Shown one piece after another: positions 32,869 to 34,578 of a stretch of 64,000 nt of DNA (its first letter is position 1; every line of letters starts with the position of its first letter). Position numbers and translations under genes: made by a program. Under the pieces are notes generated by a model that was not told the origin of the DNA, did no database searches, and was given only the letters and a program-made list of their open reading frames with translations. Source of the DNA: Alphaproteobacteria bacterium (GTDB lineage: Bacteria > Pseudomonadota > Alphaproteobacteria > Rs-D84); NCBI GenBank assembly GCA_017520675.1, contig JAFXFG010000011.1:469-64468 (forward strand), read 5' to 3'.

Positions 32869-32989
32869 TTGATTTTTTAGGGATTTTGTGATATAATGTG
32901 CTTAATTGGACAGACGGTGTTTATCGTCTGTTCTTTTTTTTGCCCACAGGTTTTGTGGGTGTTTTTGTTATAACAAAAGGAGTATAATA
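32869..32989 (+). promoter_or_regulatory. promoter plus leader with two tandem intrinsic terminators
   Basis: TTGATT - 17 nt - TATAAT (32869-32897). Hairpin GGACAGACG/CGTCTGTTC plus 8 T (32908-32941). Hairpin CCCACA/TGTGGG plus T-run (32943-32966). Then AAAGGAG and ATG. Confidence 0.55.
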
Positions 32990-34513
32990 ATGAATAAAGT
33001 ATCATATATGGGAAATGGAGAAATTACAGAATTTGATTTTAGATTCCCATTCTATGAAAATAATAATGTGGTGGTCTTGAAAAACAATAAGCCAGCAACA
33101 GGTTATACAATTGTTAAAACACCTGCGGGTGATGGTGCAGATGTCCCATATTTGGGCGGAAGGGTTGTTTTCCAAAATGCGCCACTGCCAACAGATAGTA
33201 TTGTTATTTCACGAAAGTTGCCGTTGTCGCGTGTGGTCGATTATCAGCCATTGGCAAAGATAGAACCAAAGTTATTAAATCTGGATATGAATTATTTGAT
33301 GGAATCTTTGAAAGATTTTCAGGATGAATTAGATACCTTTAATGAGTGTTACAATGGGATTGTAAATGTTGAATCTGTTGAGGTTTTTTTAAAAAAAGCC
33401 AATTTTATAGAACAACTGATACAAAATAAAATGCTTGTTACATTAGATGATTTTAATTCTGGAATTACAAACTGCATTACAGAAATTCCGCAAGATATTA
33501 AATTGGAAATTGTTGATGGTGCTGTTGTTCTTAAAGCGGGTAGTAAAGTATATGTGCCAAATGGCGCTGGGGTATTTAATGTGGTCACTATTGCTAATGA
33601 TATAGTAAGAACAACAAACATAGGCGGAATTGTTTTTGTAAATTCAACAGGAACAAGTATATATACTGAAAATTTGGGTTCTGTATATAGTGGCGATTCT
33701 GCACCATCTTCTAGTGGTGTTTGGTATGATACAGCAAGCAATCTTGTAAAGTTTTCAACCGATGGGCAAACGTGGTCAGGACAATATTCATTCCCTATTG
33801 GGATTGTGTCAACTGGTGGTGGACAAATCACAAGCATAGACCAAGTGTTTAATGGGTTTGGGTATATTGGGTCGACTGTATTTGCGTTGCCTGGGGTTAA
33901 AGGTCTTACCCCTGATGGACGGAATGAAGAAGGAACTTTGAAAAATGTATATTGGACAACGTCAAGTATAATACTAAGAACATATTCATCGGCATATAGT
34001 GGTGAATATGATATATTTTTTAACGGTGGTTCTTTCGGCGCGCTAAAAAAGACATATGTTTATGACGAAGAATCTAATTACAATATGGATTCTAATAATC
34101 GTTATAACAGTACATACATTGGAAGAGCCTACATAACATCAGGTACTATATCATACTTTGCAACAAAAAACGCTTTTCACGCAGTTGATTATAGCGATAC
34201 AGGATTTATCGCGCATCAGGCTATGCCAAGTGATAAATATATAGATTTAAATTTGGGACAAAGTGGGGCAGTTTATACAGCGCCGGCAGATGGATTTGTG
34301 TGTCTGAGGGCAAAAACAACTGTGGCAGGTAAGGCGTATTGTATAACTAATGAGGTTAATGGGATGCAAAATATGGTAACTGTGGATAATTTGGGTGGTG
34401 AATTTGGTATATGTTTGCCTGTGTCCGATGGGCAGGTATTTTCTGTGGAATATGGGGGTGCACTGGATAGTGGCTATGTGTTTCGATTTGTGTTCTTGAA
34501 TGCCGCGAAATAA
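32990..34513 (+). CDS. phage T7-type tail-fibre-like protein
   Basis: N-terminus VSYMGNGEITEFDFRFPFYENNNVVVLKN...GYTIV...VVFQNAPLPTDSIVISRKLPLSRVVDY...LNLDMNYLMESLKDFQDE parallels the T7 gp17 N-terminal domain pattern. Gly/Ser/Thr-rich beta-type C-terminus. Confidence 0.6.
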   Translation: MNKVSYMGNGEITEFDFRFPFYENNNVVVLKNNKPATGYTIVKTPAGDGADVPYLGGRVVFQNAPLPTDSIVISRKLPLSRVVDYQPLAKIEPKLLNLDMNYLMESLKDFQDELDTFNECYNGIVNVESVEVFLKKANFIEQLIQNKMLVTLDDFNSGITNCITEIPQDIKLEIVDGAVVLKAGSKVYVPNGAGVFNVVTIANDIVRTTNIGGIVFVNSTGTSIYTENLGSVYSGDSAPSSSGVWYDTASNLVKFSTDGQTWSGQYSFPIGIVSTGGGQITSIDQVFNGFGYIGSTVFALPGVKGLTPDGRNEEGTLKNVYWTTSSIILRTYSSAYSGEYDIFFNGGSFGALKKTYVYDEESNYNMDSNNRYNSTYIGRAYITSGTISYFATKNAFHAVDYSDTGFIAHQAMPSDKYIDLNLGQSGAVYTAPADGFVCLRAKTTVAGKAYCITNEVNGMQNMVTVDNLGGEFGICLPVSDGQVFSVEYGGALDSGYVFRFVFLNAAK

Positions 34514-34546
34514 AGTCACTGAATTTTTTTATTTGTTGTTAGTTAG

Positions 34547-34578
34547 AAAAATCCCCCGTTTGGTGGGGGATTTTTTTA
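34547..34578 (+). terminator. intrinsic terminator after the tail-fibre-like gene
   Basis: AATCCCCC / GGGGGATT stem plus 7 T. Confidence 0.75.

Follow-up and report, generated by a model that had tools for sequence, protein, structure and literature searches.

An intact phage-type tail-fibre gene behind a conserved double-terminator leader at the head of a glycan locus in a gut alphaproteobacterium

We analysed a stretch of 64,000 nucleotides of alphaproteobacterial DNA (GenBank assembly GCA_017520675.1, contig JAFXFG010000011.1, positions 469 to 64,468; hereafter the window) in which a solitary gene for a phage-type tail fibre (32990, ATG, to 34513, TAA, + strand; 507 aa) stands behind a strong promoter and two tandem terminators, directly upstream of a glycan locus. 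The open reading frame (ORF) is homologous to phage fibres, intact and under purifying selection; it is an orphan, and both its leader and its linkage to glycan genes are conserved among relatives. We favour, with a probability of roughly 0.4, the interpretation that the product is a receptor-binding fibre, domesticated by the bacterium to serve a particle whose genes are elsewhere, and that the gene stays off because of the tandem terminators until processive antitermination allows read-through. The partner particle, the antitermination and the binding of a glycan are what we infer from the features described below.

The promoter is of the sigma-70 type (32869-32897, + strand), with a -35 box TTGATT (32869-32874), a 17-nt spacer and a TATAAT -10 box (32892-32897) extended by a TG (TGaTATAAT, 32889-32897). 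It matches 10 of the 12 consensus positions in addition to the TG extension, and it is the best-scoring site of the region. Promoter geometry, together with a C/A preference at +7/+8 in 29 distinct leaders of relatives, places the predicted transcription start at an A 7-8 nt 3' of the -10 box (32904-32905), so that the first hairpin begins only about 4-5 nt later. Terminator 1 (32908-32941; hairpin 32908-32933) has an 11-bp stem, a GTTT loop and a T8 tract, and terminator 2 (32941-32966; hairpin 32941-32961) has a GCCCACA/TGTGGGT stem and a T5 tract, both on the + strand. They are followed by a near-invariant stretch (32963-32982, + strand), in which TTTTGTTATAACAAAA, a perfect 16-nt palindrome (32963-32978), overlaps the ribosome-binding site (RBS) AAAGGAG (32976-32982), 7 nt 5' of the ATG. 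At the other end, an intrinsic terminator that is bidirectional (34547-34578, A5-TCCCCC-loop-GGGGGA-T7; stem and loop 34552-34569, then T7) closes the unit, which is monocistronic as had been proposed. Seven terminator-like sites were counted in the fibre gene region, against 1.4 +/- 1.2 in shuffled sequences. All the elements listed in the sequence-only reading (ORF, promoter, leader hairpins and final terminator) were thus recovered in place.

The leader is conserved well beyond the window. Among the 29 distinct leaders, the promoter hardly varies, its elements RTTGWTTTTT and TTTRTGRTATAAT being at least 75% conserved at fixed spacing. The order of promoter, about 5 nt, hairpin 1 with its U-tract, hairpin 2 with its U-tract and GTTATAACAAA(A)GGAG was kept with fibre proteins of as little as about 40% identity, and a hairpin followed by a U-tract occupied the place of terminator 1 in every leader examined. 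RNAalifold, run on a MAFFT alignment of the leaders, missed both hairpins because the variable stems were misaligned; per-sequence folding and a test of arm complementarity were used instead. All 26 leaders folded one by one formed tandem hairpins (z-scores of the minimum free energy from -4 to -8), two of them (L014 and L288) having three. In the 24 two-hairpin leaders, which provide 21 distinct arm pairs per hairpin, the arms of hairpin 1 paired with their own partners at 6.5 of 7 positions, compared with 4.0 for arms taken from different sequences; the corresponding values for hairpin 2 were 6.9 and 4.6. This excess of own-arm pairing indicates covariation, the stems differing while pairing is kept. 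A compensatory change was also found within the species, in terminator 2 of locus L001 (GCCTGCGA...TCGTGGGC). The claim that the leader contains two terminators is therefore strengthened by covariation across the 29 distinct leaders. RNAalifold paired the U-tract with ACAAAAGG in the palindrome/RBS region, and the palindrome may act as an operator or as a helix masking the Shine-Dalgarno sequence. The promoter spacer holds no palindrome that is conserved in the leaders.

A gapped-pattern scan of metagenomes recovered at least 13 further copies of the leader, and tandem-terminator leaders precede the fibre genes of Candidatus Enterousia and those of the distant loci L037 and L053 as well. Metagenome-assembled genomes with a leader-bearing fibre gene include JAFQTD01 (RGIG2127), DBXG01 (UBA1218), GCA_017503685.1 and CAJOHU01. 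Nothing comparable was found in Rfam, where the best matches to the leader reached at most 19 bits for gathering scores of at least 37. In the 2.9 million contigs of IMG/VR, the leader motif was matched four times: three matches were due to chance and had no fibre gene, and the fourth is a prophage contig that includes host flank (L080, described below). The fibre gene of the podophage contig L100 has no such leader. A second copy of the leader was observed in L014 (16230-17002), before a non-fibre gene (216 aa, weak match to a DuOB domain) followed by a C5 DNA methylase gene. Judging from this copy, the leader may control a small regulon.

The protein was modelled with AlphaFold2, with a mean predicted confidence score (pLDDT) of 81 over the full length and of 92 when aa 158-507 were modelled alone. 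The gene (+ strand throughout) encodes an N-terminal beta domain (aa 1-92, 32990-33265), a helical, coiled-coil shaft (aa 93-157, 33266-33460, with model helices at 93-125, 128-145 and 152-157), a central beta-rich domain (aa 158-395, 33461-34174; about aa 165-395 in the model) with the conserved anchors NCITEIPQDIKLE..KAGSKVYVPNG and IDQVFNGFGYIGSTVFALPGVKGL.P.GRN, and a C-terminal beta-sandwich of jelly-roll fold (aa 396-507 and stop, 34175-34513; sandwich at aa 410-507 in the model). Foldseek, PHROG and the Pfam matches of relatives identify the first of these as a podovirus adaptor of the T7 gp17 type, which docks fibres on tails. At a Foldseek probability of 1.00, it matched the N-terminal domains of fibres in solved podovirus tail complexes, namely those of Carin-1 (8ck1_B, TM-score 0.72), LME-1 (9efk_AE) and Kp7 (7y22_e), and 159 models of the viral structure library BFVD, mostly T7-like tail fibres, were retrieved at E<1e-3. 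Residues 4-86 also matched PHROG 1640 ('tail protein') at E 2.4e-4. No match of the window protein to PF03906 (Phage_T7_tail; gathering score 25.2 bits) was obtained. Relatives carrying the same central and C-terminal module do match this family (P0092 at 51 bits, P0108 at 47 bits); the fibres of L100, L052 and L080 score 19.6-23.3 bits, and the N-terminus of the window protein is 27% identical to the PF03906 region of P0092 (E 5e-5). The proposed T7 gp17-type N-terminus thus holds at the level of the fold, and the sequence match to PF03906 is seen in relatives only.

In Foldseek, the C-terminal domain resembled CBM6, C1q and the collagen-binding domain of ColG, with a probability of about 1 and TM-scores of 0.3-0.47. 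The central domain, although confidently modelled (pLDDT 92), matched no fold of the PDB, every match having a TM-score of at most 0.2. A Pfam search of the whole protein returned a sub-threshold DUF4897 alone, and a PADLOC search gave no match. Sequence comparison with the PDB yielded nothing of use, as the oxidoreductase retrieved at E 0.006 is spurious and a 'phage particle protein' reached only E 0.53, and among GenBank phages a single weak match was found, to the C-terminal part, in Dulem virus 31.

Adaptor and tip occur in several combinations in this family. The leader and T7-type adaptor occur with the tip found in the window, with a small 'WYRKY...GWVEQGG' tip, or in an 801-aa version of the protein (L080). 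A sister class of about 265 aa (L288, 10001-10804; L289, 10001-10798) has the same leader and T7-type N-terminus with a small tip that differs from that of the window (WYRKYKSGWVEQGG motif). In Candidatus Enterousia, a leader of this type and the tip of the window go with an Mtd_N adaptor (PF18454, 55 bits). Such a swap of the tail-docking domain between lineages makes sense only if the protein docks on a particle.

The gene is maintained by selection. Its ORF was intact in every locus examined and, relative to alleles of the same species, the ratio of nonsynonymous to synonymous changes (dN/dS) was 0.15-0.16 for the N-terminal part and 0.04-0.09 for the C-terminal part, both of which are under purifying selection. 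These low values outside the central part indicate that the gene is functional. For the central part the ratio was 0.46-0.65, with a dS of 1.3 against L001 and 0.38 against L004. The window flanks are 94-98% identical to those two loci, and blastn cannot align positions 33580-34172 to L001 or 33580-33826 to L004. Comparison of alleles resolved two hypervariable cassettes (+ strand), aa 198-279 (33581-33826) and aa 320-394 (33947-34171). In protein alignments the alleles are mosaic and share breakpoints at KAGSKVYVPNG.GVF, IDQVFNGFGYIG...GRN..GTLKN and FHAVDY. Residues 198-394 therefore form a hypervariable cassette that recombines into mosaics within the species. Two sources of this diversity were considered and rejected. 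No stretch of the gene recurs in the window, which also lacks a template repeat and a reverse transcriptase, and all types of base vary; this rejects a target of a diversity-generating retroelement. A supply of silent cassettes was discarded as well, no paralogous segment or repeat being present in the window.

Close relatives of the fibre belong to uncultured Alphaproteobacteria that live in the guts of ruminants and other animals, and dozens of related bacteria not yet in culture share the arrangement. The glycan locus that the gene heads in the window (34680-45236, + strand) encodes GT1, RgpF, a 214-aa protein, GT2, UDP-galactopyranose mutase (GLF), a 1428-aa protein and a UDP-glucose dehydrogenase-like protein, in agreement with the position first assigned to it. 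The 1428-aa protein (40189-44475, + strand) has three GT2 domains, and its segment at about 41553-42610 has diverged between contigs of the same species, which indicates that the glycan locus has a variable segment too. The 214-aa protein (36771-37415, + strand) consists of an N-terminal membrane anchor and a beta domain without Pfam match; ten or more further loci have a relative of it beside the fibre gene, and its beta domain is fused to the C-termini of GT8 enzymes in L006 and L007.

Loci L001 to L005, with fibre proteins 69-85% identical, are fully syntenic. Homologues at 43-55% identity are located in other lipopolysaccharide (LPS) or polysaccharide loci, among genes for GT9 heptosyltransferases with HldE-like (PfkB and CTP-transferase), SIS-domain and HAD-hydrolase proteins, for giant GT2 and GT8 proteins, and for MBOAT/ALGX, Stealth and RgpF. 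More distant relatives stand with a pair of ArnT-like PMT_2 and GT2 genes, the copies of Candidatus Enterousia are flanked by glycosyltransferase genes, and the sister fibres of about 265 aa lie in DegT/GT2/GT1/GT8/GT11 loci. Clustering of ORFs over 162 loci extended this pattern. By our own count, about 19 of 22 independent cellular loci (about 85%) place the gene in or beside LPS or polysaccharide genes.

Homologues occur in phage contigs too. In the podophage contigs L100 and L110, genes for gp11-like, gp12-like and large internal proteins precede the homologous gene in the order of T7, and a small conserved ORF lies directly 3' of it. More than 3000 proteins contain the module corresponding to aa 152-507, and so do 77 IMG/VR loci, in which its neighbours are genes for endolysin, baseplate wedge and tail assembly chaperone. 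The central and C-terminal module is thus a genuine phage fibre tip. A family of small ORFs (about 60-250 aa, without Pfam or PHROG match) lies 3' of the fibre gene in 105 of 163 sources, viral and cellular (for example L006 11529-11930, L007 11626-11889, L080 6053-6601 and L100 11821-12165), and probably represents a fibre assembly chaperone; no member is present in the window.

The contig L080 (also L287 and L155; IMGVR_UViG_3300033463_010496) carries a myovirus-like prophage that begins right after a host-type, leader-bearing fibre gene. The order there is host RgpF, a 195-aa gene, the leader-bearing gene for the 801-aa fibre and then, all on the strand of the fibre gene, a small ORF and genes for holin, HNH, endolysin, helicase, transposase, methyltransferase, exonuclease VIII, tape measure, baseplate hub and wedge, and RecT, up to another fibre fragment at the contig end. 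The junction could result from a Campbell-type insertion, adjacent integration, recombination within the fibre gene or chimeric assembly, and an identity of about 73% to L006 and L007 is too low to decide its origin. The prophage fibre shares the central domain, so phages of these hosts use the same tip, and this supports the binding of the tip to these bacteria. A prophage at the edge of the gene, which the sequence-only reading had named as a finding that would speak against an orphan, was encountered in this contig, and neither in the window nor in more than 20 other loci.

The window itself, cellular DNA with a GC content of about 35%, carries five tRNA genes. With the exception of the fibre gene and the glycosyltransferase-like genes, none of its ORFs has a homologue in the 77 viral loci, and no tail gene was found in the 64 kb. 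Unannotated genes, a Fic gene and a tRNA-Met gene lie 5' of the fibre gene. Pfam annotates none of the six upstream neighbours (346, 371, 107, 108, 282 and 276 aa), and their comparison with PHROG gave a single marginal match, of the 371-aa ORF to phrog_11766 (unknown function; E 0.0031). These comparisons substantiate the earlier statement that no phage gene is near. The Fic-domain protein (30054-31241, + strand) matches the PADLOC model of the anti-phage defence protein 'SoFic' at E 4e-109; its gene lies 1.7 kb 5' of the fibre gene, in a strain-variable stretch, and is missing from L001 and L004. This stretch (25893-31329) begins with the tRNA-Met gene (25893-25967); the segment behind it holds different genes in the window, L001 and L004, contigs of the same species. 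Its flanks are 93-98% identical where alignable, and the segment resembles an integration or variable island; the genes of 346, 371, 107 and 108 aa belong to it. A small ORF on the - strand (32615-32749; 44 aa from its ATG, 51 aa according to the ORF caller), located between the 282-aa gene and the fibre promoter, has an N-terminus like a signal peptide. It is kept in L001, and the DNA around it is nearly identical across strains.

Taken together, these features suggest the following scheme. The product would be a trimeric receptor-binding fibre of phage type that the bacterium retains for purposes of its own. Transcription from the strong near-consensus promoter would meet two tandem intrinsic terminators about 5 nt on, leaving the gene off by default, and read-through would occur only with a processive antiterminator, presumably the late regulator of a phage-derived particle (of the GTA, or gene transfer agent, tailocin or defective-prophage kind) encoded at another place in the genome. 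The fibre sequence contains neither a signal peptide nor a secretion signal, and the fibre would assemble in the cytoplasm. The T7 gp17-type adaptor would dock it on the tail of the particle, lysis would provide the exit from the cell, and binding to a glycan on the surface of kin cells would fall to the hypervariable central domain and the C-terminal jelly roll. Location inside the glycan locus would keep the receptor-binding protein and its receptor genetically linked. Three roles had been suggested for the gene from its sequence. The best fit is a receptor-binding component for a GTA or tailocin whose genes lie elsewhere, given the selected docking domain, the swapped adaptor and the precedents of RcGTA, BaGTA and CcGTA; the role of depolymerase is unsupported, the central domain matching no enzyme fold. 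The expectation that expression needs antitermination, with a gene off by default, is a reasonable reading of the conserved terminators, and no antiterminator was found.

Several observations weigh against a fibre of this kind. Neither a partner particle nor an antiterminator gene is encoded in the 64 kb of the window; a search for gp12-like proteins returned mainly free podophage contigs of about 35 kb and no cluster in this lineage, a low-GC group of gut Alphaproteobacteria from which we know of no GTA. No conserved A...T pair at fixed spacing, as expected for a -10-like pause element (NANNNT) after the promoter, was detected in the 29 leaders, and the tandem terminators could merely damp a strong promoter. 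Orphan copies outside glycan loci exist in L052 (among NusA, IF-2, Der and BamB), L036 and L057. Lastly, the central domain varies within the species while the adjacent glycan genes are 94-97% identical, indicating that tip and locus do not co-vary finely.

The one cluster to which the gp12-like search led lies in L290, a metagenome contig of 236 kb from an unrelated organism (49% GC). A 15.5-kb, T7-like, structural-only cluster (2941-18452) encodes a portal, a T7 scaffold, a capsid, gp11-like and gp12-like proteins, a pectate-lyase tailspike with a T7-type N-terminus, a T7-type terminase, a cell-wall hydrolase and GTA_holin_3TM. Pfam flagged no replication, RNA polymerase or integrase gene in it, and its GC content equals that of the housekeeping flanks. 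On its gene content, this cluster is a candidate podovirus-derived GTA-like element, and its existence makes a domesticated particle of podovirus type plausible.

The trigger could instead come from outside, the leader mimicking a phage late promoter so that the late antiterminator of an infecting phage induces the host fibre. The fibre would then enter the progeny virions by way of its adaptor and either sabotage them as a defence, through a wrong or over-sticky specificity, or retarget them. The default-off leader is of the type read through by phage Q-type factors, the T7-type and Mtd_N adaptors are types of phages from the same habitats, and the hypervariable mosaic of the central domain fits an arms race. 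The SoFic defence gene in the nearby strain-variable island, the prophage abutting the gene in L080, and the second leader of L014, which suggests a regulon by its place before a DuOB-like non-fibre gene beside a methylase, also agree with this scenario. We nevertheless regard it as rather unlikely, as the one IMG/VR contig with the leader includes host flank and no phage with the same promoter and leader was found, the fibre lacks a PADLOC match, and a pure decoy would leave the linkage to glycan loci unexplained. To our knowledge, no phage-triggered host-fibre system has been described. A broader version, rather unlikely too, is a regulon of 'late-promoter-mimic' cassettes (promoter, tandem terminators and palindrome) driving host fibres with interchangeable adaptors and tips; the antiterminator of an invading phage would induce them and its progeny would be equipped or poisoned or, alternatively, the cassettes would serve an undescribed GTA of podovirus type. 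If true, such a regulon would be an undescribed host strategy for steering where virions go.

Other explanations dispense with the particle. A lectin, an adhesin, a fibre-only bacteriocin or an accessory of the polysaccharide pathway, released by some route, would account for the embedding in glycan loci, often beside the membrane-anchored 214-aa family, for the likeness of the jelly roll to carbohydrate- and collagen-binding modules, and for a hypervariability typical of exposed antigens. A glycan-binding protein acting on its own is unlikely, however, as it would need a secretion signal that the sequence lacks, its silenced leader would be odd for a structural surface protein, and a tail-docking adaptor that is under strong purifying selection, and is replaced by another (Mtd_N), is difficult to account for if there is no tail. 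A hydrolase or lyase gene is part of many exopolysaccharide operons, and Foldseek did return weak, low-scoring alignments to GH43 and levanase structures, as if the protein were a tailspike-like depolymerase trimming the polymer of the adjacent locus. All these enzyme matches had a TM-score of at most 0.2 and a root-mean-square deviation above 20 Angstrom, despite the model pLDDT of 92; there is neither a beta-helix nor a Pfam enzyme domain, and the protein would be cytoplasmic. This explanation is improbable, and we dropped it for want of an enzyme fold in the central domain (model of aa 158-507 against the PDB). Finally, the gene could be a non-functional relic, the last gene of a decayed prophage left by chance beside a glycan locus; the L080 prophage, with its holin, endolysin, tape measure and baseplate genes, does begin right after a homologous gene, and the window has a tRNA-Met gene and a strain-variable island upstream. 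Yet the ORF is everywhere intact, dN/dS is 0.04-0.16 outside the variable cassette, the leader is kept by compensatory changes across genera, and the association with differing glycan loci recurs in more than 20 independent loci. A relic is thus largely refuted, and very improbable.

Receptor-binding proteins determine which cells a phage, a tailocin or a GTA can reach, and this family would be a clean natural case of a host keeping the receptor-binding component only. If the partner of the domesticated fibre is GTA-like, antitermination-controlled gene transfer would extend to abundant uncultured Alphaproteobacteria of gut and rumen and to a particle of podovirus type. Should an infecting phage be the trigger, a new kind of interplay between phage and host would be involved. 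Either way, the leader of 100 nt is a compact conserved regulatory element undescribed in Rfam, and the central domain offers a confidently modelled fold without a solved relative. The novelty would lie in a GTA-style accessory receptor-binding gene and an antitermination-gated unit, in a lineage and for a particle type where neither is known.

The fibre shares with the T7 gp17-type fibres of Autographiviridae and other podoviruses (PF03906) the fold of the N-terminal adaptor, a coiled-coil shaft and a distal binding domain, and its relatives in podophage contigs take the gp17 position. It differs from T7 gp17 in lying below the Pfam threshold, in distal domains unrelated to the gp17 tip, and in being encoded by a solitary chromosomal gene. 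As for Mtd-type fibres of Bordetella phage BPP-1 (PF18454), the window protein has no Mtd_N, and the reverse transcriptase, template repeat and C-type lectin tip of that system are missing; the homologues of Candidatus Enterousia do resemble it, having Mtd_N before the same central and C-terminal module.

In its regulation, the unit recalls several systems controlled by antitermination. BaGTA is expressed from a strong constitutive sigma-70 promoter followed by a leader terminator, with the Q21-like processive antiterminator BrrG, and its authors propose antitermination as a general feature of alphaproteobacterial GTAs (bioRxiv 10.1101/2024.11.20.624540). CcGTA is switched on by the processive antiterminator GafZ (PMC11150451). 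As with PbgtA-K/BrrG of BaGTA, CcGTA/GafZ and PR'-tR'/Q of lambda, where late or structural genes are silent before a processive antiterminator has loaded, a strong near-consensus sigma-70 promoter is followed here by one or more terminators before the gene. Unlike in these systems, the terminators come about 5 nt after the start, in tandem sets of two or three, and serve a single-gene unit; the conserved -10-like pause element of Q- and BrrG-type units was not found.

The closest parallel for the position of the gene is provided by the head-spike genes rcc01079/rcc01080 (ghsA/ghsB) of RcGTA, which adjoin the capsule genes rcc01081-01086 of Rhodobacter capsulatus (PMC10218006). RcGTA is siphovirus-like, Foldseek found no similarity of the window fibre to its proteins, and it is regulated by quorum sensing and GafA rather than by a double-terminator leader; the window fibre, in turn, comes from a lineage with no known GTA and has a podovirus-type adaptor and a hypervariable tip. 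What the two have in common, with a receptor role that we infer for the window gene and no structural cluster found for it, is a phage-derived receptor-binding protein encoded away from structural genes, next to the genes for the receptor polysaccharide, in an alphaproteobacterium.

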